Source of the DNA: Candidatus Kaiserbacteria bacterium
GTDB lineage: Bacteria > Patescibacteriota > Minisyncoccia > Phycocordibacterales > UBA2100
Assembly: GCA_963767115.1 (NCBI GenBank)
Contig: CAVYCR010000003.1
Span: 109,377 to 173,376, forward strand
Direction: 5' to 3'
Length of the DNA: 64,000 bases
The first letter of the stretch is position 1, and every line of letters begins with the position of its first letter. Under the pieces are notes generated by a model. It did not search any database. It saw only the letters and a list, made by a program, of their open reading frames with translations, and was not told the DNA's origin. This document shows, in pieces, positions 18,611 through 62,838 of the stretch. The translations under genes and the position numbers were made by a program.

Positions 18611-18645
18611 GCAATCTGCGCTTCTTTACAGTGCTCGGTCGGCTT

Positions 18646-19571: not shown

Positions 19572-19658
19572 CTCCGCACTATACCAAGTCTTTCAATTAT
19601 TGATATTGGTATGATTTTAGTTGGAAAGATTTTCTTTTATGTTATATAGTTTTACGGT

Positions 19659-40000: not shown

Positions 40001-40013
40001 TATAATCTTTCCT

Positions 40014-40925
40014 ATGTATCAACGCACCGCCGCGATGCTTGCCCTCGGACTTTCCCTCTTCGCCATCACCACATCCGTGGCTTTCGCATCCACCGGCACC
40101 ATTGTTTCACCCGATCAATACGCATGGGATGACAACGGCGGGTATGTGAATTGGCTTGCAGTCGGCGGCAATGTCACTGTCACCGATACCGGACTCACCG
40201 GATATATCTGGTCTGCAGGATTCGGCTGGATCAACCTCTCACCGACCGACGGCGGCGTCACCAACGTGGGTGGAGTTCTCGGCGGCTATGCATGGGGTAC
40301 CAATACCGGCTGGATCAATTTCACCGGGGTGACGATCGACAGTAATGGCCTCTTTCATGGTCACACTGTCGCGCAATCCACCTTCGGCACGATGACGTTT
40401 GACTGTACCTACTGCGATGTTGTCACTTCGTGGACAGGATCTTTTGTGGCGCCGCCGACTACTCCTACACCATCACCATCTCCTATCACTGGGGCCAACG
40501 GCATGCCGGCGCAAAGCGGCACGCTTTCATACGGCTACCAAGCGACAACTACAATTACTGGTAGTGCGTCGACACAAGTAGCTACAACTACCATCACAGC
40601 ACAAACATCGACTAACGTATCGCCATCATTGCGACCAACGACCCCGCCACCATCCGTTGAGCCGACGTCCGCGCCGCCAAAGGCTTCAGCATATGTATCA
40701 CAACATATTTCAAATCAGCACGTGGTGACTGCAGTAGTTTCTCAAGCAAACATGCCGACAGTCGGCCCCTCGACAAACGGAGGCGCTCCGACGCCAGCGA
40801 CCAATACCATCGAGCCATCTCCACAGCACGCTCCGGCGCAATCAACAACGCCGCTTCCTCCTACGTGCTCACTATTCACCTGCTGGATTCAGGGACTTTT
40901 TGATTTCTTGAAGTCGATTTTTTGA
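40014..40925 (+). CDS. secreted repeat protein (GYxWSxxxGWINF/L repeats, Pro/Thr-rich C-terminus)
   Basis: Signal peptide MYQRTAAMLALGLSLFAITTSVAFA. The repeated units are GYIWSAGFGWINL and GYAWGTNTGWINF. It lies between the two giant genes. Confidence 0.55.
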   Translation: MYQRTAAMLALGLSLFAITTSVAFASTGTIVSPDQYAWDDNGGYVNWLAVGGNVTVTDTGLTGYIWSAGFGWINLSPTDGGVTNVGGVLGGYAWGTNTGWINFTGVTIDSNGLFHGHTVAQSTFGTMTFDCTYCDVVTSWTGSFVAPPTTPTPSPSPITGANGMPAQSGTLSYGYQATTTITGSASTQVATTTITAQTSTNVSPSLRPTTPPPSVEPTSAPPKASAYVSQHISNQHVVTAVVSQANMPTVGPSTNGGAPTPATNTIEPSPQHAPAQSTTPLPPTCSLFTCWIQGLFDFLKSIF

Positions 40926-41002
40926 GTAATACACATAATCTTTTCAGCATTTAAATAGTGGCCTTGAATTTCTTGCTACAATGCAGGAACGTTAAATATT
41001 GC

Positions 41003-44000
41003 ATGAAATCCAGGTTATCAGTTATTGTCGGATTTGCTCTCTTACTTGCAGCTCCATTCGCCGCTTCAGCAACCTCCTATTTGCCAGGTCAAACCCTCAA
41101 CCCAAGCTGTACACCGACTGATCCTACGTGTATCGTCGTTCCCAACACGACGAGTAGCAGCTTCACGGCGACGTCTTCTTCGGCGACATCGACGTTTGCC
41201 GGCAGCGTCACTGTCTCAGGTAATGTAGCTATCGGTGGTCTCAGCGGCATTCTCCGTGCTGTTGCTGGTGTGATCACAAACACGCTCGTCAATCTCAGCT
41301 CAGACGTGACAGGTGTACTGAGCATCATCAACGGTGGCACCGGCATATCATCCGCTCCGAGTTACGGCCAAGTCCTCGTCGGCAACGGGAGTGGTGGATA
41401 CACGCTGACGTCGACATCGTCCTTGGGAGTGGCGGCGTCGGGTGCAGTATGGGGCAGCATTGTGGGATCGATTGCTAGTCAGGCGGATTTGCAGAGTGCG
41501 CTTGGTGCGAAGCTCGGACTCGCTGCCTGGTACGCAACCACTACCGACGCCTTAGCACAAGGCTCAACCAACAAATATTTTGCCAATTCACTCGCGCAAG
41601 CGGCTATTTCGGTCTCCGGTTCCCCACTCACCTATACATCCGGTGTGATCGGCATCAACCAAGCAAGCGCCAGTCAGAACGGTTACCTCGCTTCTACTGA
41701 CTGGTCAAATTTCAACGGGAAACTCGCATCGTCATCACTCTCCGCCTCGTATCCGCTTGCGTACAACTCTTCAACGGGAGTCTTTAGTCTCGGCTTCGGT
41801 ACAACGACTGCCAACACTTTCTCTTCTCTCCAAACGTTCAAAGGTGGGGCTTCTACCTCTGCACTCACCCTTGGCACGGGCGCAGGCATTTTGCAAACGA
41901 ACGCTGCTGGCGTGGTATCAGCGGGCACTGTGAGCCTGACTTCTCAAGTAGCAGGCACGCTCGCTCAAAGCAACGGTGGCACCGGATTCAATTCATATAC
42001 TGCCGGTGCCATCCTCTATGCAGACGGCTCGGGCAATCTTCAGGAGCTTCCTGCCGGCAGTAACGGCCAAGTCCTCAAGGTCGCGGCAGGATTACCGGGC
42101 TGGGGAGTTGACCTTACCTCCGGTGGCGGGGGTAGTAATGACGGCATCTTTGCAACGACGAGCAGCGGTGTCGTGTATCAACTCAACACCTCAAATCCCG
42201 TCGTCATCGGTTCGAATTCCACCTCGACTGCCAACAGCATCTTTGAAGTCTCAGGGCAACAATATATTTCAACCAAGCTCGGCATCGCGACCACTACTCC
42301 AAGTACCAATCTCTCGGTTGCAGGCTCAGGCTACTTTACCGGAGGCCTCGGCATCGGTACCTTGAATACTGCTCCGGGTTCACTTGTCGTCACGGGCAAC
42401 ACCACGCTTGGCAGCGCAACCTCCACCAATTTCTTCTCGACAGTTGCCAACTTCACCAGCGCTATCGCTACGACTTTTAATGCTTCGCTTGCTAATATCG
42501 CTGGTTTGAGCGTGACGAATTCGACTACTACTAACGCAACGACGACCAATCTCTACGCGCAAAGCGCATCGATCGGATCATTGGGTCTCTCTTCTGCACT
42601 TGGTATCGGGAGTGGGGGCACAGGACTTGCTTCTGGACCCGCCTATGGCCAAGTACTGCTCGGCAATGGAAGTGGCGGATACACGCTGACGTCGACATCA
42701 TCACTTGGAATAACGAGCGGCGTTTGGGGCAATATCACCGGCACACTTGCCAATCAGACCGATTTGCAAAGTGCACTCAATCTCAAATTGTCATCGTCAT
42801 CACTCTCCGCCACCTATCCGCTCTCATACAATAATAGTAGCGGTATTTTCAGTATTGGCTTCGGCACCACGACGAGTAACTCTTGGGCTGGAACGCAAAC
42901 ATTTAACAATATTTCTGCAACGAATGCGACGACGAGTAATTTTGGCATCACTGGTATTACCAATGGCGTTCTTGCGACGAATGGAAACGGTTCGGTGATT
43001 GCGACAACAAGTATTGGTGCCAACTACATCAACGGCATCCTGGGTACGATCAATGGCACAAACTTTTCACGCGGCGGATCAATTACACTGGGAGGAGCAT
43101 CAACGACACTGCTTTCTGATGCCAACACTTTTTCGGGTAGTAATATATTCTCAGCACTTAGCACATTCACAACCGGAATTCTTTCGAATGCCTCATCGAC
43201 ATTCACTTCGATCTTGAACGTGAATACAGTTAATCTCTCCAACGCACTCGGTATCGGGAGTGGCGGCACAGGACTTGCCTCCGCCCCTACGTACGGTCAA
43301 TTATTGCTCGGCAACGGAAGTGGCGGCTATACCCTCACATCGACCTCATCGCTCGGCATTGCAAACGGTTTCCAGTGGGCAACGAATGGTTCAGCTATTT
43401 CATACAGTACGGGTAATGTGGGTATTGGTACGAGTTCTCCCGGCGCAGCATTGTCAGTAAGTGGCAATACAGCACTTGCCGGCACCCTTTCGATCCAGAC
43501 GTCAGGCACCTCAACACTTACCGACCTTCAGGGTACGTCACAGTATGTCTTCGGCTCATGGGCTCCGCGTTTATGGGAACTTGCAGATGGTACGTCGCTC
43601 AATCCAGTAACCACCACTGGTGCGACCTTCAAGATTTCCCGCACCGAAGCAGTGGCGAGCAGCACCTGTAACAACAACAATGTTGATAATGAATGCAACG
43701 CGGCATTGCTTGTCGAATCTAATGCAAACGCGATCGCCGCATCTTCCTCCCAACAAACCGACGCAATTTTTGCCGGGGCAAAAGGACAACCGATCGGAAC
43801 TGACGTCGTAGGACTTTCAGCTATTGGCGACGTAGTGGGCGCTGGCACCGGTATCGGTACAGGCGCGTATCTTGAGGGCCGCCGCGATACCGCGACAGGC
43901 CTTGCAAAAGGCCTCGAGGTGCGCGTCACCAACATCACCAGCAAAGCGGGCACCTACTATAACGCTGGCGAATCGGACACCGAAGGCATCTGGGTCACCG

Positions 44001-47000
44001 GTAATTCAAGCAACGGACTTCCGATAGGCGCCGGCATGTCATTTGGTGCCATTAACGGGAGCGAATTCCTGACTGGTATCGGATTTACAACAAACAGCGT
44101 TGCGTCTTCCACCATTCGTGATGACAGTTCTGCATCCACATCAATCCAGATCAACGGAAATCACACCAATGCGATCAATATAGCGAGTAATGGTACCTAC
44201 GCTTTAACTACTGGAGCAAATTCAGGAAACGTCGGCATCGGCACAGCCAGCCCCGGTTATGAATTGACGGTCTCAACGACATCAGGAACGCAAGCGTATT
44301 TTGGAAGCACGGGCTCGCATAACGGTGGCATCATCATCGACAACGCCGCCGGTGGATTCCAGTCGGTCATTAATTTACTGAATGCCGGTACACAAATATT
44401 CCAAATCGGAAAGCAGACGGACAATTCATTCTTCATGTATGACGCATCGAACACGCGGAATTTTTTAACCTACTCACCGACCTCACAAAATCTCATACTC
44501 AATTCAGCGGCAGTAGGAAATGTCGGCATTGGTACGACCACTCCCGGATCGCTTCTCTCTGTCGGCGGCGTTGCAAACTTCAGCACAGCCACCAGCACGT
44601 TTTATTCTTCAGGCGGCATCAATCTTACGAACGGCTGTTTTGCATTAAATGGAACCTGCATAACAGGCGGTGGTGGTTCTAACTATTGGACCTCGTCAGC
44701 GGGGACGCTCTATAACAACACCGGCGCGAGCATCGGAATCAACAATGCATCCCCTTCTTACCCCCTCGACGTCGGAGGCTTTATCAACACCAGCGCACTC
44801 ACTGGTGGATTCAAGCAGGGCGGCACCACGCTCTTGTACGCAAGTACTACAAACCTTTCAACCTTTGTCGGCTTCAATGCGGGAGCGAATGTCCTCACGA
44901 TCGCTACCTCAAGCTCGCTCACCTCCGGCGCATACAACACGGTACTTGGCTACCAAGCACTCCAGAACGCGACCTCATCCCAGAACGTTGCAATCGGCTA
45001 CCAGGCACTGCAGGGAAACTCCAGCTCGGGCGATAGCTCTGGCAACCAGAACGTGGGTGTCGGCTATCAGTCACTGCGATACAACGCGGGTGGATCCGAC
45101 AACAGCGCACTCGGCTATATAGCGCTCCTTAACAACACCAGCGGCACGCTCAACACCGCACTCGGCTACCAAGCGCTCACCGGCAACACGGGCGGCTCAA
45201 ACAACCTCGCCATCGGTCCCTTCGCGCTTGATGGGAATCAGACTGGTGTGAGCAACGTTGCCGTCGGCAGAAATGCGATGCTCAATGAACTGAACGGATC
45301 GAGTAACGTCGCAGTCGGTATGGGCGCCGGAGACGGTGTCGCGTCAAACTCATTCTCCAACAACGTGCTTCTCGGCTATTACTCCGGATTCGGCCTTTCG
45401 ACGGGCGGTAATAACATACTACTTGGGTATCAGGCCGCCTCCACCACTGCAACAGGCGGAAACAACATCGCACTCGGCTACAACATCGATCTGCCGTCCG
45501 CAAACGGCTCCAACCAACTCGATATCGGCAACCTGATCTACGGCACGGGGATCAATGGAACTCTGAACACTGTCTCGACGGGCAACATCGGCATCGGCGA
45601 ATCCGCTCCCCTTGCAAAACTTGATATAGCGAACTCTTCAGCAACGAGCAGCCTTCTTTTGCGCGGTGGCAATAACCAGACTTCATCCACTACCAACCAG
45701 ATCGTCTTCAGCTACGCAGGCACTGCCAACTACGAGAGCGCCCTCAAGACTCGCAGCAATAGTGCCGGCAACAGTGGCAACGACATTGACTTCTACCTGT
45801 GGAACACCACCGACGGAGCAGCGAGCATTGCCAACAACCCCGCATTCACCATCGATGGCGCGGGCGGTATCGCGGTTGGGCAAGGATACGCGGGTGCCGG
45901 CGGGATCACTCCGCCTGCCAACGGCGCGATCATACAAGGAAATGTGGGGATCGGCACCACGTCACCTTCTTCTGCACTCTCACTGAATGGCAACGCACTT
46001 TTTGGCGGTAACCTCAATGTCATTGGCAATATTACTGGCAACTATCCCTTCAGCCAATACGGCACCGGCGCAGTAGCAGAACCGATCATCACTACCGTCG
46101 GCCGCGTGATCTACGCAGATCAATACGGCACGCATCACGACGGTATCACCGACGACACGACGGCAATCCAAAACGCACTCAACGCTGCAAGCTCTGAAGG
46201 CGGCGGCACAGTTTTCATCGGTCCGTACCGCTACCTCATCAACAGTGCGAACCTCACGATCCCGTCGCAAGTCACCCTCTCAGGCGAGGCATGGCCGGGA
46301 GTACCTTCAGCTGGGAACTTCGGTACCAAGCCGTACACGCTGGTGCTCAACCCTACCTACACGATCATCGGTAGTGACAACGCAGGCCTCCAAGACCTGC
46401 TGATCTTGAAAAGCGGAATGACCTCGCCGACATCGACGCGCTCCAGCATGAACTTGGTCGCGAGCTACGCGGGCACCGCCATTACCGGAGCAGGTAATGA
46501 CTTCAGCGTGCAGAACGTGACAGTTGGCGGCTTCAATACGTGCTTCTACTCAAGCGGGTACGCGAGAATGGTACTCAACCAGTTCTTCGGCGACTGTACC
46601 AACGGCCTCGTCGCGGACAACGTCCACGATATCGGCAAGCTACACAATATCGAGTTCTGGTCGTTCCTCTCGGTAGGTTTCGGTGGTGCCTATGTCGTCG
46701 CGTACCCTGTATCTAATGTTTCCAACAGTAGTGGCAACTATGATGTCACAATCCCGACTAACGTCTTCCAGACTGGTGACACGGTCTGGGTCTCGGGTGT
46801 CGGTGGTGCCGTAGGTGCTAACGGTAAATGGATCGCGACAGTCGCTGGTCCCAACGACCTAATTCTCCAGAACTCTGCGGTCTCCCCCTCAGTTGTCGGC
46901 ACCACGACCGCAAGCTCATACGAAGTATCCGTCGCAACCACAACCGCGCTCTATGCCGGGGAAGGCGTGAGCGGTACCGGCATTCCCTCGGGCGACACTG

Positions 47001-50000
47001 TCGCGCAAGTTTCATCGCCCGCTTCAGTGATCTGGCTTACCCAAGCCGCAACAGCAAGTGGTACGAACGTGACGTTGAGCTTTACCAACGGCACCTACAC
47101 GAGCGGTGGTAACGTCTATATAGATACGACGATCCGCAATGGAACTGCCTACACAATTACTCATAGTGAGGGGCTGGAATGCAACGACTGCTCCGATATC
47201 GGCCACCAAATAGGCTTCTATCTCGGCGCGGGAGCGAGCGGCATCAATATTATTAATGGAGTTTCTGACTATGATGGAAATCTCCAAGATCCTACCGCGA
47301 TCAACCTTGAGGTCACCAGCACCTCGACTGCTTCGGATTGGAATGGTGGTTGGATGGATTCAAAGAATACTTCAATCTATAACGCTAACGCGAGTGGCCC
47401 TGCGACAACGGTGTCGGGGGTAAATATTTCTACCGAATCAGGCGGTACCACGGCTGACGTCGAAAGCGGTCGCCTCATTATATCCAACTCGCAGCAGTGG
47501 AACGCGAGCGATATCTTGGTGGGCTCAGGGACCGGCAGCCTCACCATGAATGGTGACGACATGGTCCACACGACTATGTTGCCGGCTAATTCCGCAACGC
47601 TCGCGGAACTGTCGATCGATGGTAGTACGCAGCTTAAGTCCAACTCAGTTGACCAGGGTCTTGCCTCGTTCTCTTCGCCTCTCAACGGCAATACGGGAGC
47701 AGGCACCGGTGCGCTGACCCTCTATCTCGGCACCACCACGACCGGCTTCGAGACCGCTTTCGGCAACAACGCACTCCAAAACGCCACGTCATCCTCCGAT
47801 GACGTCGCCGTCGGCTATGGTGCGCTCACCGGAAGTGCCACGATCTCGAGTGTTGGCTCCAATACCGCAATCGGCTGGAACACGCTCAACCTCAATACCT
47901 CGGGACACGGCAATGCTGCGCTCGGCGCAGGTGCCTTGTATCGTAACACCTCTGGCAGTTTCAACATCGGCATTGGTAATTCCGCACTCGCTTTTAACAC
48001 GACCGGCTCATCCAATGTCGGCATCGGCGCATCTGCTTTGTGGTTCAACACGGGATCTCAAAACACGGCGATCGGCTATCAAGCCGGCGAAGGCGTCAAT
48101 GGCAGTTCTTCCGGCGGCAGCAATACATTCTTCGGATACAATACCGGCTTCGGCGACACGACCGGCGCTTCAAACCTCTATATCGGCAACAACGTCGCTT
48201 CAACCAGCGCGACTGGCTCTTTCAACGTAGCGCTCGGCTACGATATCGCCCTGCCAAGCGTGAACGGCTCCAATCAACTCGACATCGGCAATCTCCTCTT
48301 CGGCACCAATTTGACGCAAGGCACTACGGTCTCGACGGGTAATTTCGGCATCGGTACTTCGAGTCCCGGATCGATCTTCTCTGTAGGAGGTGTGGGCAAC
48401 TGGACCACGGGAACGTCGACCATGTACAGCTCTGGCGGCATCAACCTCTCTGGCGGCTGTTTCGCGGTAAACGGTACGTGCATTACCACCAGTAGTGGTG
48501 GCGGTGGAAGTTCTGCGTCGACGACATTACTCACAGATAACGACACCTTCTCCGGCGCCGAATTCTTCACCAAACCCATAAATACCTCAGGCACGACAGG
48601 AGGATACGACATCGACGGAAACCTCATCCTGCAAGCTTCTTCAACACTCGCCTCGACGCTCGTCGGTCAGAATGCAGGTTCGTCACTCACTACGTCATTC
48701 GGCAACGTCGCTCTCGGCTACGGTGCACTTCAGTACGCCACCTCGAGTCCTGACAACGTTGCAATTGGCTACAACGCACTGAACGCATTCACCTTCGCCA
48801 TTCCTGCGAATCCCGGCGCAGTGGGAGATATGACCGCGGTCGGGTATAACGCACTCGCGAGTTCCACCAACGGCTACATCAACACCGCAATCGGCTACGA
48901 ATCGATGTATGAGAGCACATCAACGGTCGAGAACACCTGCGTGGGATGGACTTCTTGCGGAGACCTGCAAAATCAGTTTTTGTCGACCGCCGGCAGCTAC
49001 AACGTTGGCGTTGGTGCTGGCGCTTTGTGGCACGATACCACTGGGGACAACAACGTGTCGGTTGGTTCTGACAACATGCGCAATACCGTCGGCGCGCAGG
49101 GCGACGTCGCCGTCGGCGAGGGATCGATCAGGAATGGCGTGCCGAATGCTGACATTGGTATCGGCGTCTATGCGCTGCGCGGCCAGGGTTGGTACGATGG
49201 CAACGCCGCAACTTCTACCGAGGCCGACGACATTGCCATCGGTACCTATGCAATGTCGACGACGAGTCTGACCACAGCACAGTACGACACGGCGGTAGGT
49301 CACTACTCCTCGCAGAACTTGATTAATGGTAACTACAACGTCGCATTCGGTGCCTTTACCTTGCAGAATGCCACCTCGTCCAACAACAACGTCGCCATCG
49401 GCTACAACGCACTCTTGGGAAGCAGTACAGTCTCGAGCGTCGGCAACAACACAGCTATCGGATACAACTCACTCGAAAATGATGCTTCCGGTGCAAGCAA
49501 TACAGCCCTTGGTTATTCATCTCTCGCCAGCAACACTTCCGGCGGCAACAACGTGGGTCTCGGCTATGGAGCGCTGACTGCGAATCTTGCAGGCAACAAC
49601 AACGTCGCGATCGGTCTCAATTCGCTTGCTAACGACAATACTTCAGGAAGTACCGGTATCGGCGCTTCATCACTCTTATACAGTACCGGTGCGGGCAACA
49701 CTGCAGTGGGCTTCCTCGCAGGTCAGGGTGTAAACGGTAGTTCTTCAGGCACTTTCAATTCACTTTTCGGCTACCAGAGCGGTTTTGGACTTACAACCGG
49801 CGCTGCAAACATTCTCCTCGGTACTAATGCTGCATCGACCACGGCATCAGGCTCATTCAATATCGCGCTCGGTTATGACGTCGCACTGCCAAGTCAGAAC
49901 GGCTCCAACCAGCTCGACATCGGCAACTTGATCTACGGCACCGGCATCAATGGCCAAGGGAGCAATGTCTCGACCGGCAATATCGGTATTGGCACCACGA

Positions 50001-50941
50001 CCTCATATTCACGTCTTGAAGTCTGGGGCCCTGATTTCTCAGCTTCTACGACCGCTTTTCTCGTCTCAAATGCCGCTTCGACAACCGAGTTCGCCGTCCT
50101 CGACAACGGCAATGCGACGCTTGCCGGCAACCTGATTCAAAACTCTGACCAACGCCTCAAGACCAACATCACCGACCTCGATGGTTCAAGTTCGCTCGCC
50201 GAAATCAATGCGCTGAACCCGGTAACTTTCAACTGGATCGATCCGGCCAAAAGCTCAGTGCCGCAGTTCGGCTTCATTGCCCAGCAGGTGGAAGGAGTGT
50301 TCCCCAACCTAGTCTCCACAACCTCACCAACTGCCCTTACACCAGATGGCACGCTTTCACTCAACTACATTGATCTCGTATCTCCTATTGTGGCAGCCAT
50401 TCAAGAACTCTCGCGGGAGATTGCTTCAATCGAGAATACTGTTTCCGGATTTGCGACGATATTTCATACCAACGAGCTTTGCGTTGGCTCCACATGCGTG
50501 ACACCCGCACAGTTCGAGGCGATGGTTGCTGCGGCAAATCAGACAAACCAATCAGGAGAATCCTCCCAGAGTTCAAGTAGTTCGGACAATTCCTCAAATG
50601 CAACCGACACTCCGCCCGTCATAGAAATCAACGGCGCCAACCCTGCAACTATTCAAGTCGGCGCGACATACAACGACCTCGGTGCCACCATCATCGGACC
50701 AAGTGCTGATACGAACCTCGATATTACGACCTATCTCAACGGTATCGCTCTGTCCCCCATCACGATTGATACTTCAGCTGCTGCTACAGACACGATCGAC
50801 TACGTCGTGACTGATCAGAACGGCCTTACGAGTACATCCACACGCACCGTGATCATACAATCATTGAATACGATCGACGCTTCTACTTCAGTAGCCGACG
50901 ACGCAACAAGTACATCGGATACTTCCTCGACCAATCAATAA
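41003..50941 (+). CDS. giant secreted fibre protein 2 (about 3312 aa): signal peptide, N-terminal module paralogous to 36701, GGYTLTSTSSLG-type repeats, YadA-head/tail-fibre-like collar repeats, internal pectate-lyase-fold (tailspike-like) domain, C-terminal peptidase-S74 chaperone domain plus Ig-like domain
   Basis: Start chosen at ATG 41003 (MKSRLSVIVGFALLLAAPFAASA); the listed GTG at 40958 is also possible. The pectate-lyase-3-like segment is VIYADQYGTHHDGITDDTTAIQNALNAASSEGGGTVFIGPYRYLI (about 46090-46700). The S74 segment is ...LIQNSDQRLKTNITDLDGSSSLAEINALNPVTFNWIDPAKSSVPQFGFIAQQVEGVFPNLV, with predicted cleavage at 50146/50147. The C-terminal Ig module is near-identical to that of protein 1. 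Confidence 0.8.
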   Translation: MKSRLSVIVGFALLLAAPFAASATSYLPGQTLNPSCTPTDPTCIVVPNTTSSSFTATSSSATSTFAGSVTVSGNVAIGGLSGILRAVAGVITNTLVNLSSDVTGVLSIINGGTGISSAPSYGQVLVGNGSGGYTLTSTSSLGVAASGAVWGSIVGSIASQADLQSALGAKLGLAAWYATTTDALAQGSTNKYFANSLAQAAISVSGSPLTYTSGVIGINQASASQNGYLASTDWSNFNGKLASSSLSASYPLAYNSSTGVFSLGFGTTTANTFSSLQTFKGGASTSALTLGTGAGILQTNAAGVVSAGTVSLTSQVAGTLAQSNGGTGFNSYTAGAILYADGSGNLQELPAGSNGQVLKVAAGLPGWGVDLTSGGGGSNDGIFATTSSGVVYQLNTSNPVVIGSNSTSTANSIFEVSGQQYISTKLGIATTTPSTNLSVAGSGYFTGGLGIGTLNTAPGSLVVTGNTTLGSATSTNFFSTVANFTSAIATTFNASLANIAGLSVTNSTTTNATTTNLYAQSASIGSLGLSSALGIGSGGTGLASGPAYGQVLLGNGSGGYTLTSTSSLGITSGVWGNITGTLANQTDLQSALNLKLSSSSLSATYPLSYNNSSGIFSIGFGTTTSNSWAGTQTFNNISATNATTSNFGITGITNGVLATNGNGSVIATTSIGANYINGILGTINGTNFSRGGSITLGGASTTLLSDANTFSGSNIFSALSTFTTGILSNASSTFTSILNVNTVNLSNALGIGSGGTGLASAPTYGQLLLGNGSGGYTLTSTSSLGIANGFQWATNGSAISYSTGNVGIGTSSPGAALSVSGNTALAGTLSIQTSGTSTLTDLQGTSQYVFGSWAPRLWELADGTSLNPVTTTGATFKISRTEAVASSTCNNNNVDNECNAALLVESNANAIAASSSQQTDAIFAGAKGQPIGTDVVGLSAIGDVVGAGTGIGTGAYLEGRRDTATGLAKGLEVRVTNITSKAGTYYNAGESDTEGIWVTGNSSNGLPIGAGMSFGAINGSEFLTGIGFTTNSVASSTIRDDSSASTSIQINGNHTNAINIASNGTYALTTGANSGNVGIGTASPGYELTVSTTSGTQAYFGSTGSHNGGIIIDNAAGGFQSVINLLNAGTQIFQIGKQTDNSFFMYDASNTRNFLTYSPTSQNLILNSAAVGNVGIGTTTPGSLLSVGGVANFSTATSTFYSSGGINLTNGCFALNGTCITGGGGSNYWTSSAGTLYNNTGASIGINNASPSYPLDVGGFINTSALTGGFKQGGTTLLYASTTNLSTFVGFNAGANVLTIATSSSLTSGAYNTVLGYQALQNATSSQNVAIGYQALQGNSSSGDSSGNQNVGVGYQSLRYNAGGSDNSALGYIALLNNTSGTLNTALGYQALTGNTGGSNNLAIGPFALDGNQTGVSNVAVGRNAMLNELNGSSNVAVGMGAGDGVASNSFSNNVLLGYYSGFGLSTGGNNILLGYQAASTTATGGNNIALGYNIDLPSANGSNQLDIGNLIYGTGINGTLNTVSTGNIGIGESAPLAKLDIANSSATSSLLLRGGNNQTSSTTNQIVFSYAGTANYESALKTRSNSAGNSGNDIDFYLWNTTDGAASIANNPAFTIDGAGGIAVGQGYAGAGGITPPANGAIIQGNVGIGTTSPSSALSLNGNALFGGNLNVIGNITGNYPFSQYGTGAVAEPIITTVGRVIYADQYGTHHDGITDDTTAIQNALNAASSEGGGTVFIGPYRYLINSANLTIPSQVTLSGEAWPGVPSAGNFGTKPYTLVLNPTYTIIGSDNAGLQDLLILKSGMTSPTSTRSSMNLVASYAGTAITGAGNDFSVQNVTVGGFNTCFYSSGYARMVLNQFFGDCTNGLVADNVHDIGKLHNIEFWSFLSVGFGGAYVVAYPVSNVSNSSGNYDVTIPTNVFQTGDTVWVSGVGGAVGANGKWIATVAGPNDLILQNSAVSPSVVGTTTASSYEVSVATTTALYAGEGVSGTGIPSGDTVAQVSSPASVIWLTQAATASGTNVTLSFTNGTYTSGGNVYIDTTIRNGTAYTITHSEGLECNDCSDIGHQIGFYLGAGASGINIINGVSDYDGNLQDPTAINLEVTSTSTASDWNGGWMDSKNTSIYNANASGPATTVSGVNISTESGGTTADVESGRLIISNSQQWNASDILVGSGTGSLTMNGDDMVHTTMLPANSATLAELSIDGSTQLKSNSVDQGLASFSSPLNGNTGAGTGALTLYLGTTTTGFETAFGNNALQNATSSSDDVAVGYGALTGSATISSVGSNTAIGWNTLNLNTSGHGNAALGAGALYRNTSGSFNIGIGNSALAFNTTGSSNVGIGASALWFNTGSQNTAIGYQAGEGVNGSSSGGSNTFFGYNTGFGDTTGASNLYIGNNVASTSATGSFNVALGYDIALPSVNGSNQLDIGNLLFGTNLTQGTTVSTGNFGIGTSSPGSIFSVGGVGNWTTGTSTMYSSGGINLSGGCFAVNGTCITTSSGGGGSSASTTLLTDNDTFSGAEFFTKPINTSGTTGGYDIDGNLILQASSTLASTLVGQNAGSSLTTSFGNVALGYGALQYATSSPDNVAIGYNALNAFTFAIPANPGAVGDMTAVGYNALASSTNGYINTAIGYESMYESTSTVENTCVGWTSCGDLQNQFLSTAGSYNVGVGAGALWHDTTGDNNVSVGSDNMRNTVGAQGDVAVGEGSIRNGVPNADIGIGVYALRGQGWYDGNAATSTEADDIAIGTYAMSTTSLTTAQYDTAVGHYSSQNLINGNYNVAFGAFTLQNATSSNNNVAIGYNALLGSSTVSSVGNNTAIGYNSLENDASGASNTALGYSSLASNTSGGNNVGLGYGALTANLAGNNNVAIGLNSLANDNTSGSTGIGASSLLYSTGAGNTAVGFLAGQGVNGSSSGTFNSLFGYQSGFGLTTGAANILLGTNAASTTASGSFNIALGYDVALPSQNGSNQLDIGNLIYGTGINGQGSNVSTGNIGIGTTTSYSRLEVWGPDFSASTTAFLVSNAASTTEFAVLDNGNATLAGNLIQNSDQRLKTNITDLDGSSSLAEINALNPVTFNWIDPAKSSVPQFGFIAQQVEGVFPNLVSTTSPTALTPDGTLSLNYIDLVSPIVAAIQELSREIASIENTVSGFATIFHTNELCVGSTCVTPAQFEAMVAAANQTNQSGESSQSSSSSDNSSNATDTPPVIEINGANPATIQVGATYNDLGATIIGPSADTNLDITTYLNGIALSPITIDTSAAATDTIDYVVTDQNGLTSTSTRTVIIQSLNTIDASTSVADDATSTSDTSSTNQ

Positions 50942-52352: not shown

Positions 52353-53246
52353 ATGCAAGACAAGCTCGTGATCGGCACTCGCGGAAGCAAGCTCGCGCTC
52401 GCGCAGACGAGACTCGTTCTCGAAGCGATGAGACAGATACTCCCGACGGTCACCATCGAGACCAAAATCATCACCACTACCGGCGACATCAACACCTCGC
52501 CCATCCCGCAGACTACTATCGGCAAGGCATGGTTCACCGCAGAGATCGAGGAAGAGCTCGCCTCCGGGGCGATCGACATCGCCGTACACAGTCTCAAAGA
52601 CGTGCCGCCTGCCGTGAAAGAAGGCACGACAGTGTTGCCGGTCTTGCGCCGCGGCGATCCGCGCGATGTCTTGATCGCAGCCGATGTGCGCAGCTTTTCA
52701 GAGCTCCCGCGCGGCGCACGCATCGGCACTGACAGCGCACGACGCAAGGCGCTCCTTTTTGCGTTACGAAGCGACCTCTCCGTAGAGAGCATCCGCGGCA
52801 ACGTCGACACCCGCCTGCGCAAGATGCATGAGGAAGGCTACGACGCGATCGTGCTCGCGGCCGCGGGCCTTCAACGGCTCGACATGCTGGGACTCGTGAA
52901 CGAATTCTTCCCTATCGAGACTTTCACTCCTGCACCGGGTCAGGGAGTGCTTGCCGTACAGATCAAGAGTGACAACGCGGAATTACTTACAACACTACAG
53001 GCGATCCAGGACCCTGACACCGTCGTCGCCGTTGATGCTGAATTTTCATTCGTGAAGACGCTCGGCGGAGGCTGCAAGAGCCCGGTCGGTGCCTACGCGC
53101 TCCCGCAAGGCGACGCCTTGCGGTTGTATGGCATGGCCGTCGGCTCTTCCGGCACACTCTTCGATACCGAGACGGGCCCGCGCTCCGAAGCCGCACACAT
53201 CGGAAGCACCCTCGGCGAGCGTTTGACCAAGATGATACATGAATAA
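52353..53246 (+). CDS. hemC: hydroxymethylbilane synthase (porphobilinogen deaminase)
   Basis: KLVIGTRGSKLALAQT... matches HemC over its full length. Confidence 0.9.
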   Translation: MQDKLVIGTRGSKLALAQTRLVLEAMRQILPTVTIETKIITTTGDINTSPIPQTTIGKAWFTAEIEEELASGAIDIAVHSLKDVPPAVKEGTTVLPVLRRGDPRDVLIAADVRSFSELPRGARIGTDSARRKALLFALRSDLSVESIRGNVDTRLRKMHEEGYDAIVLAAAGLQRLDMLGLVNEFFPIETFTPAPGQGVLAVQIKSDNAELLTTLQAIQDPDTVVAVDAEFSFVKTLGGGCKSPVGAYALPQGDALRLYGMAVGSSGTLFDTETGPRSEAAHIGSTLGERLTKMIHE

Positions 53247-53991
53247 TACGACATATATCGTGGTGACCGGCGCCGAGGACGAGTGCCGCGCACTTGCCGC
53301 GCGCATGAGCGAGCTCGGCCTCAGCACGTCTGCCCTGCCGACGATCCGCATACGCAAGCGGTCCTTGAGCGCTTCGTCCAAGAGGTTCATGGCGGGTCTC
53401 GAGGACTACGACTACATTCTTTTCACGAGCGCGCATGCCGCGCGCTTTTTCGACGAGGCATTGCGCGCACTCCGGATCAAGCGTCCGCGCGGCGTTTCCA
53501 TTGCAGCCGTCGGCCCCGCGACCGCGCGTGCACTCCGAGAAGTCGACCTCTCGCCGCGAATCATCGCGAAAAACCCCGGCGCTTCCGCGCTCGTAAGCCA
53601 ACTGCGGAATATCAAGGGCAAACGCATCCTCTTCCCCCGCTCTACAATCGCGTCGAAAGAAACTCTCGAGTCGTTGCGTACTAGGGGTGCATCGGTCGAT
53701 GTAATTCCTTTGTATATGACCTCTTCAATCGCGATATCGGGCCCTGCGTTCGCTCGAGCATTCAAGAATCCGGTGACACAAATCGTCTTCTTGAGCCCGT
53801 CGAGTGTGGACAGCTTCGCAAAGAATCTGCGCAGCGCTATACTGCGCAAGCGCGTGCTTGAGGCGAAAGTCTTCGCGATCGGTACGACGACTGCGAGCGC
53901 GGCACGCGATGCGGGCTTTATCCACGTAGCGATCGCGCGGCCGTCAACGACCGACGGCATTGTGCAAATGTTCAAATCAAAAGCCTTATGA
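53239..53991 (+). CDS. hemD: uroporphyrinogen-III synthase
   Basis: DYILFTSAHAARFF and IAAVGPATARAL are HemD hallmarks. It overlaps the hemC stop. Confidence 0.65.
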   Translation: MNNTTYIVVTGAEDECRALAARMSELGLSTSALPTIRIRKRSLSASSKRFMAGLEDYDYILFTSAHAARFFDEALRALRIKRPRGVSIAAVGPATARALREVDLSPRIIAKNPGASALVSQLRNIKGKRILFPRSTIASKETLESLRTRGASVDVIPLYMTSSIAISGPAFARAFKNPVTQIVFLSPSSVDSFAKNLRSAILRKRVLEAKVFAIGTTTASAARDAGFIHVAIARPSTTDGIVQMFKSKAL

Positions 53992-54638
53992 CACACAGTT
54001 ATCTCTTCTTGGATACGATGCCGAGCATCAGAGAGCTCTCGCCGAGCGATCTTGATTCATACAAACGCGAATTTGAAGAAGTCATCACGAATCGTCCCGA
54101 GATATATGTGCGCTCCTATGCGACACTCGCTCTCAAGGTCGGTTCACGATTCATGCTGCATCTGCGTGCCGAGGATGCGACGACGATACAGGACCTAGCA
54201 CGTGAGCTCTTGCACACTCGTCTCGGCAAGCATCTCGTTATCACCTATACACTCCTCGGCATAACGCGTCCGTCGCCCTACAATCCGAAAGGTACCGAAT
54301 CCGAAGAAGAAGACCCGGGCCGCACCTATCTGATTGTGTATCCATTTACAAAGACTATTGAATGGCACCTCCTGCCCAAGGAGGAGCGCGGCCGCATCAT
54401 GAAAGACCACGTAAGCGTCGGCAAGAAGTTCAACGACGATATTTCGCAACTCCTGCTCTATAGCTACGGCATTGACGACCACGAATTCATCGTCTCGTAC
54501 CAGACGGAGAGCCTGCTGCATTTCCAAACGCTCGTCATGGAACTGCGCGGCACCGAAGGCCGCGGCCATACCGAGCGCGACACGCCGATTTTCACTTGTG
54601 TACGGAAGACTATTACTGAAGTGTTGGATTTTATATGA
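53988..54638 (+). CDS. hemQ: chlorite-dismutase-family coproheme decarboxylase (HemQ/ChdC)
   Basis: YLIVYPFTKTIEWHLLPKEERGRIMKDHVSVGKKF... is Cld-like. It sits in hemC-hemD-(this)-hemE-hemH synteny. Confidence 0.65.
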   Translation: MTHSYLFLDTMPSIRELSPSDLDSYKREFEEVITNRPEIYVRSYATLALKVGSRFMLHLRAEDATTIQDLARELLHTRLGKHLVITYTLLGITRPSPYNPKGTESEEEDPGRTYLIVYPFTKTIEWHLLPKEERGRIMKDHVSVGKKFNDDISQLLLYSYGIDDHEFIVSYQTESLLHFQTLVMELRGTEGRGHTERDTPIFTCVRKTITEVLDFI

Positions 54639-54750
54639 GCGGAAATGACAAAGGTATTTTTTCGTTCTGCGGGACGCATAGCGCCCTCACGCCCCTGCGG
54701 GGCTGCGGGTTCGGTCCTCGAACGAAAAAATACCTTTGTCATTTCCGCTC
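54637..54750. repeat. long perfect palindromic element: 31-bp stems (54637-54667 / 54720-54750), 52-nt loop, directly after the hemQ stop
   Basis: gagcggaaatgacaaaggtattttttcgttc and its exact reverse complement flank the loop. The loop contains the mini-hairpin cccctgcgggg. Confidence 0.85.
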
Positions 54751-54762
54751 TCACGTTCGAGT

Positions 54763-55767
54763 ATGAACACCTTCCTCGATGCAGCGGCAGGTAAGAGGGT
54801 CGACAAGATTCCAGTCTGGTTCATGCGCCAAGCGGGGCGCTCGCTCCCCGGCTATCGCAAGCTCCGCGAACAGTACGACGTGCTCACGCTCACCCAGACC
54901 CCCGAGCTTGCAGCACAAGTTTCTCTCGAGCCCATAGAGCGGCTCGGCGTCGACGCGGCGATACTCTTCGCTGACATCATGCTCCTGCCGATTGCGCTTG
55001 GAGTCGACGTGAAGATCGTCGACGGCGTCGGGCCGATCATTGACGAGCCGATCACGTGCGCCCACGACCTTGTAAAGCTCCGGCCTTTCCAAGCTGACAG
55101 TATCGCCTACCTGCAATCCACAATCAGATTGTTGCGCGGTGAGCTGAAGGTCCCGCTCATCGGCTTTTCCGGCGCGCCCTTTACGCTTGCGAGCTATCTC
55201 ATTGAGGGCAAGCCGTCGCGCACCTGGGGCCTGACCAAACGATTTATGTACGATCAACCGCAGGCGTGGAATGAACTGATGACCAAGCTTTCAGATGCGA
55301 CCATCCTGTATCTAAAAGCACAGGTGGATGCTGGCGCGCAGGCGGTGCAGATTTTCGACAGCTGGGTCGGATGCCTCTCCCCGGACGACTACCGCGCGTA
55401 CGTGCTGCCTCATATGCAAAGGATTTTCTCAGGCCTCAGAGAGGCAAATGTTCCGCGCATCCATTTCGCTACCAACACGGCCGGCATGCTTGCTGATTTC
55501 TCAGACGTCGATTGCGAAGTGATCGGCGTCGACTGGCGCGTGCGGCTCGCTGAGGCACGAAGTGTCGTCGGCACGAAATCATTGCAAGGCAACCTCGACC
55601 CCGCGATTCTTCTTGCCGAATGGGACATCATCAAGGCGAAGGTCGACTCGATGTTCTCGGAGATCGATCCGCATCAGAGTTATATTTTCAATCTCGGGCA
55701 CGGCGTATTGCCGGAGAGCGACGACGCAAAAGTACGCAAACTTGTCGAGTATGTCCACACCAAATAA
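54763..55767 (+). CDS. hemE: uroporphyrinogen decarboxylase
   Basis: MNTFLDAAAGKRVDKIPVWFMRQAGRSLPGYR is the canonical HemE N-terminus. The listed start at 54736 lies inside the palindromic element and is rejected. Confidence 0.85.
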   Translation: MNTFLDAAAGKRVDKIPVWFMRQAGRSLPGYRKLREQYDVLTLTQTPELAAQVSLEPIERLGVDAAILFADIMLLPIALGVDVKIVDGVGPIIDEPITCAHDLVKLRPFQADSIAYLQSTIRLLRGELKVPLIGFSGAPFTLASYLIEGKPSRTWGLTKRFMYDQPQAWNELMTKLSDATILYLKAQVDAGAQAVQIFDSWVGCLSPDDYRAYVLPHMQRIFSGLREANVPRIHFATNTAGMLADFSDVDCEVIGVDWRVRLAEARSVVGTKSLQGNLDPAILLAEWDIIKAKVDSMFSEIDPHQSYIFNLGHGVLPESDDAKVRKLVEYVHTK

Positions 55768-60680: not shown

Positions 60681-60728
60681 GCCGGGGCGGCTGCAGCGTC
60701 TAGGCGCGCAGCCGCCCCGGCGTTTTTG
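60681..60728 (+). terminator. GC-rich hairpin plus T-run (ccggggcggctgc-N13-gcagccgccccgg cgtttttggg), terminator/attenuator-like, upstream of the OmpR regulator gene
   Basis: A perfect 13-bp inverted repeat is followed by T5. It lies inside the small + ORF 60633..60881. Confidence 0.5.
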
Positions 60729-60742
60729 GGTTCGATTTCTGT

Positions 60743-60864
60743 GCACAGAGACCGTTGGGTTTTGTATTTTGCCGTCTACGCAGGCCCGACGGGGCCGAGT
60801 CCGAGCGCTGGGCGAGCACGCCCAGATAGCGACGGCAAAATACAAAACCCAACGGTCTCTGTGC
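60743..60864. repeat. long perfect palindromic element, family A: 34-bp stems (60743-60776 / 60831-60864), 54-nt loop
   Basis: gcacagagaccgttgggttttgtattttgccgtc and its exact reverse complement flank the loop tacgcaggcccgacggggccgagtccgagcgctgggcgagcacgcccagatagc. Confidence 0.85.
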
Positions 60865-60964: not shown

Positions 60965-61637
60965 ATGAAAATACTCTTAGTCGAAGATGAAGCCAAGCTC
61001 GCGGCCGCGATCAAGAAGGGGCTCGAGCTCGAGGGATATACGGTCGATATGATCGATGACGGTAAAAAAGCCTTGACACGACTCTCCCTGCATCGCAACG
61101 ATTACGACCTCGTGATTCTCGACCTCATGCTCCCCTCGCTTGACGGCCAGGAAATAACGAAGCAATCGGCGAGATGGGCGTCACGGTGCCGATCCTGATA
61201 CTCACCGCGCGCGCCGAGACGGACACCAAGGTCAGCGTCCTGCTCTCCGGCGCAGACGATTATATCGTCAAGCCGTTTTCATTCGCCGAGCTCTCAGCGC
61301 GCATGCGCGCGATACTACGCAGGCCCGCCGAATCGCTCCCCGAAGTCCTCAAGGTCGGCGATATCGAGCTCAATGCATCGCTCAGACGCGTGCTGCGCAA
61401 CGGTGATGAGATTTCGCTTACACTCAAAGAGTTCGGTCTCTTGGAATACTTCATGCGCCGGCCCAACCAGGTCGTGAACCGCGAAGACCTGCTGAACCAC
61501 TCTGGGACTTCAATTATATCGGTTTTAGCAACGTGGTAGACGTCCATGTCAAAAATCTTCGACACAAACTCTCTGATGCAAACGGCGGCAACATACTGGA
61601 AACGGTTCGCGGCATCGGCTACCGGTTGGTGGCGTAA
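60965..61637 (+). CDS. OmpR-family response regulator, disrupted by two single-base deletions (near 61163-61166 and 61498-61505)
   Basis: ORF 60965..61198 gives MKILLVEDEAKLAAAIKKGLELEGYTVDMIDDGKKALTRL...DLVILDLMLPSLDGQEI then junk. Frame 2 gives ..IGEMGVTVPILILTARAETDTKVSVLLSGADDYIVKPFSFAEL...LKVGDIELNASLRRVLRNGDEISLTLKEFGLLEYFMRRPNQVVNREDLLNH. Frame 3 gives .WDFNYIGFSNVVDVHVKNLRHKLSDANGGNILETVRGIGYRLVA*. Joined, these form a complete REC plus winged-helix protein. Confidence 0.8.
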
Positions 61638-61672: not shown

Positions 61673-62719
61673 ATGTCGTCGCTTTTGCAAGCGCTCTTCG
61701 CCATCGTGATTATGATCACGATCGGGATCTCTTTCAGCGTGCTCTACCACAACGTCTCGCTCGCCATCCTCGAGGGTATTAGCGCGAGCCTCGCAAGCGA
61801 TGCGCCGACCTCGCTCGGGCCCGTGATCGTGCACGAGATAGAGAACATCCGCACGGTCAACCTCTGGATCATTCTTGGCGTCGTCACGCTCACGACGATC
61901 ATCTTCGGCTACGTCGTCTCAAGGGTGACACTGCGCCCGGCACGCACGGCACTCGCTTCGCAGAAACAATTCATCGGCAACGTCGCGCACGAGCTGCGCA
62001 CGCCGCTTTCGATCATCAAGACCAATACCGAGGTACTGCTCTTCGACCGTTCAATCTCACCTGACATACGCTCCACCCTCGAGAGCAACGTCGAGGAGCT
62101 CGACCGTATTTCGCAGATCATCAACAACCTGCTCTCGCTCTCGAGCCTTGCGCGGCGCGAAAATATGGAATTTGGCCTGATCGATTTTTCCGCGCTCGTC
62201 GCCGCGACAGTCGACAAATACGCGCAGCTCGGCAAGCAAAGCAAGCTCGAGATCGAGCTCAGGCAGGGCGAAGGCATCCGTGTCTGGGGCAACACGACCG
62301 CGCTCGAGCAGGTCGTCGGCAACATCGTAAAAAACGCCATCAACTACACGCCTGTCGGCGGGCGCATCAGCATCACCGTCGATCAGACCGACGAACACGT
62401 CTCATTCGTAGTGCAAGACTCGGGGATCGGCATCGAGCGCAAGGATCTCTTCCGTATTTTTGAGCCTTTCTATCGCGCAGAGCCGTCGCGTGCGCGTCGC
62501 GAAACGCGCTCCGGCAAAGTAAGCGGCAGCGGCCTGGGACTCACCATAGTCTCCGAGCTCATCAAGATGCATGAGGGAAGCATCACCGTGAGGAGTGCTC
62601 TCGGCGCGGGAACGACGGTCACCGTGCTCTTCCCCCTGCCTCAAGGCTTTGACGCAAAACGGCAGTTGGACCAGCAGGCGCTCTCAAGCGAGATCGCGAT
62701 TGATTTCTCCAAGAAGTAG
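61673..62719 (+). CDS. sensor histidine kinase (cognate of the adjacent OmpR regulator)
   Basis: Two transmembrane helices, HisKA (FIGNVAHELRTPLSIIKT) and HATPase_c (GSGLGLTIVSELIKMHEG). Confidence 0.85.
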   Translation: MSSLLQALFAIVIMITIGISFSVLYHNVSLAILEGISASLASDAPTSLGPVIVHEIENIRTVNLWIILGVVTLTTIIFGYVVSRVTLRPARTALASQKQFIGNVAHELRTPLSIIKTNTEVLLFDRSISPDIRSTLESNVEELDRISQIINNLLSLSSLARRENMEFGLIDFSALVAATVDKYAQLGKQSKLEIELRQGEGIRVWGNTTALEQVVGNIVKNAINYTPVGGRISITVDQTDEHVSFVVQDSGIGIERKDLFRIFEPFYRAEPSRARRETRSGKVSGSGLGLTIVSELIKMHEGSITVRSALGAGTTVTVLFPLPQGFDAKRQLDQQALSSEIAIDFSKK

Positions 62720-62838
62720 CGGCTCTCGCGGAGTTTTTGTATTTTGCCGTCTTCGCAGGGCCGGCGGGCCCGAGACCGAGCGCTGGCCTAGCAAGGCCAG
62801 ATAGCGACGGCAAAATACAAAAACTCCGCGAGAGCCGC
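62719..62838. repeat. long perfect palindromic element, family A: 33-bp stems (62719-62751 / 62806-62838), 54-nt loop, starting in the HK stop codon
   Basis: gcggctctcgcggagtttttgtattttgccgtc and its exact reverse complement flank the loop ttcgcagggccggcgggcccgagaccgagcgctggcctagcaaggccagatagc. This is the same core as 60777-60830, with compensatory mini-hairpin changes. Confidence 0.85.

Follow-up and report, generated by a model that had tools for sequence, protein, structure and literature searches.

A family of structured palindromic repeats with a conserved three-way-junction head and freely varying stems in Patescibacteria

What kind of element has a nearly fixed centre and long, perfectly paired arms that differ from copy to copy? 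This question is raised by a 64,000-nucleotide (nt) stretch of a Candidatus Kaiserbacteria genome (GenBank assembly GCA_963767115.1, contig CAVYCR010000003.1, positions 109,377 to 173,376), hereafter called the window, in which a preliminary description made from the sequence alone had noted three such palindromes, family A. An inverted-repeat scan recovered all three of them: A1 at 33844-33957 on the minus strand, and A2 at 60743-60864 and A3 at 62719-62838 on the plus strand. Their arms of 30, 34 and 33 bp are 100% complementary around a 54-nt core, in line with the 30-34 bp perfect stems that had been claimed. The reported division of the arms into a shared and a copy-specific part was also found, the inner 13-15 bp being common to A1-A3 and the outer 16-20 bp being specific to each copy.

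The anatomy of the element is given here for A2, all on the plus strand. The left arm, which is the 5' strand of the long helix P1, occupies positions 60743-60776; its outer ~20 nt are copy-specific and its inner part, TGTATTTTGCCGTC, is common to the copies and also present in the related locus L062 (L numbers designate the loci compared). The right arm, the 3' strand of P1, occupies 60831-60864. Between them, a three-way-junction head was placed at 60777-60830 by alifold, pair counts and the cmsearch alignment. The resulting five-helix model consists of P1, a 2-bp helix P2 (60778-60779 with 60799-60800), a hairpin HP1 (60783-60787 with 60792-60796, loop GACG), a GC/GC extension of P1 (60805-60806 with 60829-60830) and a 7-bp hairpin HP2 (60808-60814 with 60819-60825) whose AGCA loop, at 60815-60818, is invariant. 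The core can be written U-N-C-GCAG-[HP1]-CGAG-N'-CCGAGCG-[HP2]-AUAGC, closed by GUC...GAC. The minimum free energy of A2 as RNA was -89.9 kcal/mol (z = -13.95), and the folding energies of A1-A3 ranged from -79 to -90 kcal/mol, with z from -11.7 to -14 relative to dinucleotide shuffles; the reverse strands fold about equally well because the arms are perfect. The differences between the three near-identical cores all fall at paired positions and are all compensated, as the preliminary description had reported for the mini-hairpins: HP1 is ggccc/gggcc in some and gggcc/ggccc in others, and HP2, of the form CUGG-NNN-AGCA-N'N'N'-CCAG, has gcg/cgc, gac/guc or ccu/agg as its variable part. One more covarying pair had been overlooked, that of the second core base with the N of GAGNCC, which is A-U or U-A.

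Covariation was measured in two alignments. The first, made with MAFFT only, contains the three family A copies and 24 homologues; 95.0% of its cells pair against 74.3% after shuffling. Double changes affect 19 of its pairs, and sliding the partners lowers the covariation score from 0.50 to 0.03-0.11. The second contains 62 distinct sequences gathered and aligned by covariance model, and 95.3% of its cells pair (72.1% after shuffling), a percentage that is somewhat inflated by the fitting to the model and with which the MAFFT-only alignment agrees. Double changes were seen in 25 of its 30 pairs, the covariation score was 0.57 against 0.05-0.10 for slid partners, and none of 500 shuffles reached the observed values on any of five measures. 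The additional pair with the N of GAGNCC is U-A in 45 of these 62 sequences, G-C in 11, A-U in 2 and C-G in 2. Compensatory changes occurred in all five helices above the shuffled and slid-partner controls, which is the signature of a structured RNA motif. HP1 is peripheral and varies in length, with 55 nt in place of 8 in one relative and almost nothing left of it in another. Neither the junction strands, GUC-U-N-C-GCAG ... CGAG-N'-CCGAGCG ... AUAGC-GAC, nor the AGCA loop varies between two classes of Patescibacteria.

How widely this head occurs was assessed with a covariance model, R1, built from 27 copies, a check that the preliminary description had suggested. R1 matched five palindromes in the window, two more than family A, and about 60 elsewhere; A2 scored 102.3 bits. 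All copies outside the window lie in Patescibacteria genomes or in metagenome contigs without a taxon label. A scan of one genome per species (185,579 species) with a 21-base head pattern gave 31 loci, of which 29 are real and all belong to Patescibacteria (Kaiserbacteria, Paceibacterota, Saccharibacteria and 'Patescibacteria group'); the other two, in Rhizobiaceae and Aquariibacter, have no flanking arms and were discarded as chance matches. At least 12 copies are present in one Kaiserbacteria metagenome-assembled genome (MAG), and JGI and other metagenomes provided 43 further loci, nearly all confirmed by the model. Groundwater wells at Hainich yielded L066, L068, L072 and L076. The same head recurs in dozens of independent assemblies and studies. 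The head variant of the window's lineage, with A-U in P2, had no match in the JGI metagenomes, and the window itself is Patescibacteria-like, since the best named homologues of its UppS and histidine kinase come from Paceibacterota, Minisyncoccia and Kaiserbacteria.

Known families were then considered. A viral or plasmid origin was rejected, the elements having no match in IMG/VR, among the INPHARED phages or among the PLSDB plasmids. Across the whole window, tRNA-Asn alone passed the gathering threshold of Rfam 15, and a permissive search with short and long forms of the element (E up to 10 or 1) returned only generic miRNA-precursor and VA hairpin matches, far below gathering scores. As no Rfam 15 score of the element reached a gathering threshold, membership of a known RNA family (among them hammerhead, twister, pistol, hatchet, HDV-like, Y RNA, SRP and 6S) was rejected. 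No description of Patescibacteria non-coding RNAs or repeats was found in the literature searched, nor were these elements described in that on repeats or miniature inverted-repeat transposable elements (MITEs) of the Candidate Phyla Radiation (CPR). The element is real and well supported and, judged by Rfam 15 and the searchable literature, the sequences represent an undescribed family of structured repeats. Its broad kind, dispersed palindromic intergenic repeats, is known; its conservation pattern is the opposite one, with an invariant junction head and a stem that is free but paired.

The two additional matches in the window form family B. B1 (24858-24973, plus strand) has the head UUUGCAG-HP1-CGAAACAGAG-HP2 with an AGCA loop, scores 59.1 bits with R1 (E 3e-11) and sits between convergent genes, 6 nt from either stop codon. 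B2 (34519-34634, minus strand) lies 2 nt after the uppS stop codon and has one G·G arm mismatch. The second P2 pair of family B is U-A instead of C-G. Since both palindromes match the family A model at E ~1e-10, families A and B are homologous. Two further palindromes have the same build with other cores, which brings the total in the window to seven, five of them model-confirmed. Palindrome C (54637-54750) overlaps the TGA of a HemQ-like gene and has 31-bp perfect arms, an A-like inner arm, GGTATTTTTTCGTTC, and a different 52-nt core; it reached 17 bits with R1 (E 0.1) and is likely to belong to the same element class. Palindrome D (5542-5671), located 4 nt after a stop codon, has 29-bp perfect arms around an unrelated core of 72 nt. 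D and B2 have in common an arm segment, GCACCCTTT[CG]CGAA (14/15 nt), preceded by GGCCGCA, and this sharing despite unrelated cores suggests that arms and heads can recombine between element types.

We asked which strand carries the fold. Stems in the relatives are 17-68 bp long and imperfect, and their mismatches were counted in the non-window copies on a strand-neutral alignment of the arms. On the sense strand of the head, 100 mismatches were of G·U type against 53 of A·C type, that is, those which would be G·U on the opposite strand (binomial p = 2e-4), and 229 purine·purine mismatches stood against 52 pyrimidine·pyrimidine ones. The commonest internal loop in the relatives is a tandem GA/GA, CGAG opposite CGAG, which was found 28 times and often within a closing module, 5'-GCGAGAC...GCGAGCG-3'. 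Because the elements are oriented at random with respect to genes and are mixed within one GC-skew regime, strand-biased mutation cannot make this polarity, which argues for selection on one single strand. The selected form would thus be a single-stranded fold of fixed polarity, most likely RNA. Of the earlier proposal of selection on a folded RNA or a cruciform DNA, the folded single strand is supported by the covariation, and the strand-polar mismatches speak for RNA, or for a single strand of DNA, rather than for a symmetrical cruciform of duplex DNA.

The closing module, with its tandem G·A and a bulged A, also bounds hairpins in other Patescibacteria and is sometimes nested twice; examples are L020:3883-4027(-), L020:410-572(-) and L068:10885-11064(+). 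One of the closing-module hairpins has a different head that still contains GCAG and an AGCA-loop hairpin, which indicates that the class is wider than families A and B. The CGAG...CGAG pairs were also considered as a 4-bp target duplication; this was rejected since modules of 10-12 nt recur both nested within one element and at several stem depths, and the pairs are accounted for by the tandem G·A module.

Several comparisons with syntenic relatives bear on how the elements came to their sites. In L080, the order uppS, small gene, open reading frame (ORF), ABC transporter is kept (UppS 73% identical over the part covered, ABC transporter 79%), and there is no element either after uppS, the site of B2, or after the small gene, the site of A1. 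The intergenic lengths of L080 equal those of the window minus the palindromes, and the model finds nothing in either gap. Likewise, L081 and L082, which have the same operon of response regulator, kinase and DUF1993 (kinase 65-66% identical), are without both A2 and A3 at the syntenic sites. The first base of A3 is the G of the histidine-kinase TAG, and the window kinase is two codons shorter at this end than those of L081 and L082. All four testable window sites are therefore empty in syntenic relatives, and what is absent is the whole palindrome including its outer arms. Elsewhere, L059 has an element straight after a stop codon where L013, whose neighbouring gene is 88% identical, has none; a comparison of L018 with L025 (59% protein identity) was uninformative, synteny being lost. 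Whole elements were also found at loci with unrelated flanks, with outer arms 97% identical between L059 and L068, 90% between L060 and L054 and 87% between L017 and L068. Taken together, the empty sites and the whole-element copies at unrelated loci indicate that the element was inserted as a unit. On these comparisons it is an inserted, non-autonomous and probably mobile element. A partner protein encoded in cis was rejected: all-against-all clustering of 603 ORFs from 76 loci gave no protein family present in more than four loci.

With respect to genes, six of the seven window palindromes have their start close to a stop codon, at most 2 nt within it or 8 nt behind it, and nearly fill the intergenic gap. 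A1, for example, lies 8 nt downstream of the TAA of the ORF at 33966-34466 (minus strand). The statement that each family A copy is directly 3' of a stop codon thus holds for A1 and A3 and fails for A2, whose setting is the promoter region between divergent genes: a terminator-like hairpin precedes it by 17 nt, and a conserved promoter-region motif follows it at a distance of about 10 nt. That strong, GC-rich hairpin (60681-60726, within 60681-60730) has a perfect 14-bp stem followed by GTTTTT and looks like a terminator on the plus strand; no convincing gene precedes it, and it could be a small RNA or the end of a leader. Among 43 classifiable copies, 15 are in convergent gaps, 6 in divergent gaps, 10 are co-directional sense and 12 co-directional antisense, the background gaps at the same loci being 23% convergent and 20% divergent. 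Placement therefore shows a mild preference for 3' ends and no preference of orientation. An intrinsic (Rho-independent) terminator was rejected as an identity for the element: no U-tract directly follows the stems of A1-A3, and none of them was listed by a terminator scan.

For the outer stems, the preliminary description had suggested an inverted duplication of the flanks or a hairpin-templated repair mechanism; flank duplication is not supported. The empty sites contain neither arm, the arms resemble no ancestral hairpin, whole elements are copied elsewhere with their arms, and no significant similarity of an arm to its own flank was detected: 28 longest-common-substring and 28 local-alignment tests against shuffles gave a best p of ~0.02. 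A near-repeat of 11-12 nt between the left flank of A2 and the end of its right arm (GATTTCTGTGC versus GGTCTCTGTGC) and a 9-mer common to the A1 arm and its flank are both within chance, and the resemblance of the A2 right arm to native sequence of L081/L082 (GCAAAA...CGTCT) is of low complexity and ambiguous. No arm 12-mer recurs elsewhere in 630 kb of compared sequence, and two outer arms had no exact match in IMG/VR; on these two results, the arms were rejected as spacers or guides. Similarities are found instead between copies. GCACA...GGGT...TGTATTTTGCCGTC is common to the arms of A2 and L062, apart from an indel that is mirrored from one arm to the other, and A3, L062 and many relatives start with GCGG. 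Together with the segment common to B2 and D, these similarities indicate that the stem belongs to the element and has a hypervariable middle segment.

The stems also change in a peculiar manner. Within the palindromes of the five model-confirmed window copies there is a single arm mismatch and no G-U at all, against about 5% of G-U pairs in the relatives, and the inner arms of A1 and A2 are set apart by a 1-bp indel matched on both sides. At an orthologous locus in L009, L038 and L061, the heads are 98-100% identical and the flanks ~85-88%, so that the head appears, on these alignments, to be under purifying selection in place. The stems of L009 and L038 differ there by one clean U-A to C-G swap; that of L061 differs at five or more of nine middle base pairs, including a 1-bp deletion matched on both arms. 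In L033 (UppS 76% identical), a family B head follows the uppS stop codon directly, inverted relative to the window and with an unrelated arm. These data would point to one of three processes: arm-to-arm correction at the DNA level, repeated re-insertion at hot spots, or conversion from paralogous copies. Perfect, G-U-free arms and mirrored stem changes and indels suggest DNA-level copying of one arm from its partner, by template switching within the hairpin; such hairpin-templated copying fits both features and is put forward as a weaker idea.

Taken jointly, the observations are best explained if family A belongs, as one branch, to a class of palindromic insertion elements that are short (~115-250 nt), non-autonomous and dispersed and that extend across Patescibacteria, an explanation that we favour and hold to be slightly better than evenly balanced. 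The element is a T-shaped hairpin, in which the conserved 54-nt three-way-junction head caps a long helix that is free in sequence and kept in pairing. Its fold would be recognised on one strand, always of the same polarity, and most likely in RNA co-transcribed with the neighbouring genes. The head may be the part that a trans-acting protein recognises, in mobilisation and/or processing, and the long stem could form a very stable 3'-end hairpin or a double-stranded RNA substrate that affects the ends and stability of transcripts, comparable to Correia/NEMIS and ERIC.

A number of points weigh against this explanation. No target-site duplication was seen at the junctions of the seven window palindromes, the outermost terminal repeats are not conserved (the outer 16-20 bp differ between all window copies), no transposase domain was detected in the ~40 window ORFs scanned, and no parent insertion sequence was found. 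RNA as the active form and the trans-acting partner of the head are both steps that we infer. Random orientation (10 sense, 12 antisense) means that the polar fold is left without an explanation by a simple cis function on the sense strand of host mRNAs. Single-stranded DNA also accommodates G·T wobbles and sheared G·A pairs stably, and a DNA intermediate would therefore be compatible with the polarity. To these must be added the fitting of the larger alignment to its own model, and a view of this genome that, for copy number and arm sharing, is that of the 64-kb window.

The chief rival is a DNA-level element. The T-shaped hairpin would form on single-stranded DNA, during replication, uptake or transfer, as the substrate of a hairpin-recognising enzyme such as an HUH nuclease or Rep, a tyrosine recombinase or a resolvase, much like parvoviral ITRs (inverted terminal repeats), IS200/IS605 ends or integron attC sites. 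Perfect arms and flipped heads would result if one arm were nicked and then rebuilt on the template of its partner. It accommodates the perfect Watson-Crick, G-U-free arms of the window, the mirrored substitutions and indels, the inverted head of L033 at the same uppS site and the random orientation relative to transcription; the shape, a long stem with two small apical hairpins and GAGC/GCGAG-rich modules, fits too, as does the stability of G·T and sheared G·A pairs in DNA hairpins. Against it, no Rep, transposase or recombinase is associated in cis, and there is no link to the replicating strand, three plus and two minus copies lying in one GC-skew regime. Near-identical assemblies of one locus (L057, L071) show no flip, the copies are internal to the chromosome with none at termini, and the G-U-rich, bulged stems of the relatives resemble typical RNA helices. 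We regard a DNA-level element as unlikely, if a serious competitor. Multicopy host genes for non-coding RNAs or 3'-untranslated-region modules, not mobile, in which the head would be a small RNA (protein sponge, ribozyme or ligand binder) freed from a processing stem and presence or absence would reflect gain and loss, are rather unlikely. The invariance of the junction strands and AGCA loop in two classes, the polar fold, the conservation of the head above its flanks at the orthologous locus and the general likeness of long closing stems to RNase III processing stalks are all what such genes would predict. They leave unexplained the whole elements at unrelated loci with outer arms 87-97% identical, the four empty sites out of four and the random orientation without a conserved promoter, and a search as permissive as E up to 10 brings up no known family of ribozymes or riboswitches.

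A further reading, that of a new kind of prokaryotic hairpin element, is that the stem is actively re-templated arm-from-arm at the head by nick-and-copy or template switch, a bacterial counterpart of flip/flop hairpin transfer, or else that the stem segments conserved in place are guide-like sequences on an invariant, protein-binding head. We consider it improbable. If true, re-templating would explain a stem segment that is hypervariable yet always paired, and one or the other form would account for perfect arms with mirrored indels and a sharp inner/outer boundary, for the inverted head of L033 and for a polar fold that ignores transcription. The mechanism of the preliminary description, read as a small mobile core that either settles in a site-specific palindrome or gives rise to one, through inverted flank duplication or insertion into a pre-existing terminator hairpin, is very improbable and already largely contradicted. 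The sharp boundary between shared inner and unrelated outer arms in A2, A3 and L062 and the near-repeat at the left flank of A2 are in its favour, but that near-repeat is not significant and arm-flank similarity in general is at chance level; moreover, neither arm is present at the relatives' empty sites, outer arms travel along when elements are copied elsewhere, the A2 and L062 arms are related through mirrored indels, and the stems have no following U-tract. Artefacts or chance palindromes from assembly are next to negligible. Assemblers do break at repeats, with Logan contigs ending inside the head, and several genes of the contig are split in a frameshift-like way; yet dozens of independent assemblies and studies contain the same head, the elements lie well inside contigs between ordinary genes, and covariation could not come from an artefact. 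Duplication of a single locus during assembly, named in the preliminary description as a possible undoing of its proposal, is contradicted by flanks and arms that differ between copies and by an independent Logan assembly that supports the sibling element, reproducing the left half of 34519-34634. The Logan contigs that end inside the head, one from this organism and one from a relative, are L032 (end at 10399) and L033 (end at 1335). The palindromes thus interrupt the assembly of short reads, and CPR MAGs probably contain too few of them.

The favoured class of insertion elements has several partial counterparts. Correia/NEMIS elements of Neisseria are likewise dispersed, non-autonomous, palindromic intergenic insertions of ~100-150 nt that form long hairpins and are often co-transcribed at gene ends. 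Their hairpins are RNase III substrates. Their terminal inverted repeats are conserved, a TA target is duplicated, and the centre varies or may be missing; here it is the centre that is conserved, with a covarying three-way junction as its head, while the stem is free and no target duplication was seen. ERIC/IRU and the Rickettsia RPE are also imperfect palindromes of ~100-150 nt in compact genomes, tolerated at or inside gene ends, and the replacement of the last two kinase codons by A3 recalls RPE insertion into coding sequence; unlike the present elements, they are conserved over their whole length, have no invariant junction head with free paired stems and belong to other phyla. The terminal inverted repeats of a MITE were rejected, as the outer ends differ among the window copies and it is the inner arm and centre that are conserved. 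REP/REPIN sequences resemble the elements as multicopy extragenic hairpins near gene 3' ends, and RAYT, an enzyme that acts in trans from a single gene copy, recognises REPIN hairpins in their single-stranded DNA form. In a REPIN, however, two conserved REP arms with a GTAG or CGTC head surround a variable spacer. This pattern is reversed here, the sole invariant being at the junction, GUC/GAC, so that membership was rejected; no RAYT gene was seen in the 64-kb window.

Other likenesses are more distant. By structural analogy, parvoviral ITRs may be compared for their long stem with two small hairpins, perfect arms, head in both orientations and GAGC-like motifs. ITRs end the linear single-stranded DNA genomes of eukaryotic viruses with a Rep gene, whereas the present elements are internal, bacterial and without a Rep nearby. 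A parvovirus-type hairpin telomere was rejected, with chromosomal genes on both sides of the elements and no flip between assemblies of the same locus; the one inverted head at an orthologous site lies in a different species (L033). Integron attC sites are imperfect palindromes of similar size directly 3' of genes, recognised as a folded single strand by structure over sequence. They conserve the outer R''/R' cores around a variable centre and stand in cassette arrays next to an integrase, and were rejected because here the centre is conserved, the ends are variable and the copies are dispersed among housekeeping genes. TIGR-Tas units occur in CPR bacteria and their phages and have stems described as "variable but consistently palindromic" (PMC12045711); these units are arrayed in tandem beside the gene for Tas, a Nop-domain protein, and their loops contain dual spacers that vary and lie between box C and box D (PMC12045711). 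Such a stem-loop array was rejected, the copies being single and dispersed, with an invariant head, no adjacent Tas-type gene and no recurring neighbour gene.

The surroundings of the palindromes show features of their own. A2 and A3 bracket a degraded two-component operon, in which the response regulator is in two ORFs (intact, with 224 aa, in L081 and L082) and the kinase has 348 aa against 378-379 aa in the relatives. Split or truncated genes at 60965-61539, 61673-62719, 2689-3707 and 4932-5537 may be pseudogenes or assembly indel errors. The match of MreB to its profile is limited to positions 96-326, and that of Fmt to its N-terminal-domain profile is limited to positions 83-155. Two tandem mini-palindromes of ~19 nt at 30411-30464 (GCGACAATCWGATTGTCGC) form a 39-nt in-frame insertion in the ABC-transporter gene relative to L080; a 1-nt insertion ~100 nt upstream of them splits this gene into ORFs 29649-30725 and 30472-31482. 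Palindrome C lies between the HemQ-like gene and hemE within a haem-biosynthesis cluster at 52353-55767 (hemC, hemD, a HemQ/chlorite-dismutase-like gene and hemE). Such a cluster is unusual, as Patescibacteria are generally described as lacking haem-biosynthesis pathways. A tRNA-Asn gene at 6885-6958 is followed, up to ~20000, by a stretch of lower GC (0.48-0.53) with many ORFs without a Pfam match, a weak Phage_CRI/G2P filamentous-phage Rep match at 14433-15545 and a ParB-like gene at 13027-14016; the stretch from 6885 to 20000 may be an integrated element. Giant surface-protein genes at 36701-50941 encode proteins of 1099 aa (Peptidase_S74 and Ig-like domains) and 3327 aa, and a gene at 26147-28243 encodes an Ig/PG-binding protein of 698 aa. 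Giant surface-protein genes are typical of episymbiotic CPR bacteria.

Patescibacteria are ultra-small bacteria whose genomes are of ~1 Mb with almost no spare DNA, and yet many copies of this element are retained in them. In this setting, the elements fill intergenic gaps and can reshape gene ends, A3 supplying a new stop codon for the histidine kinase, and they could reveal how transcripts end or are processed. A head that is near-invariant across two classes probably marks an RNA- or DNA-binding factor. A model of the elements would aid the assembly and annotation of CPR genomes, as assemblers break contigs at them. Finally, a stem that is free, always paired, sometimes perfect and changed by mirrored indels offers a test case between compensatory evolution at the RNA level and palindrome correction at the DNA level.

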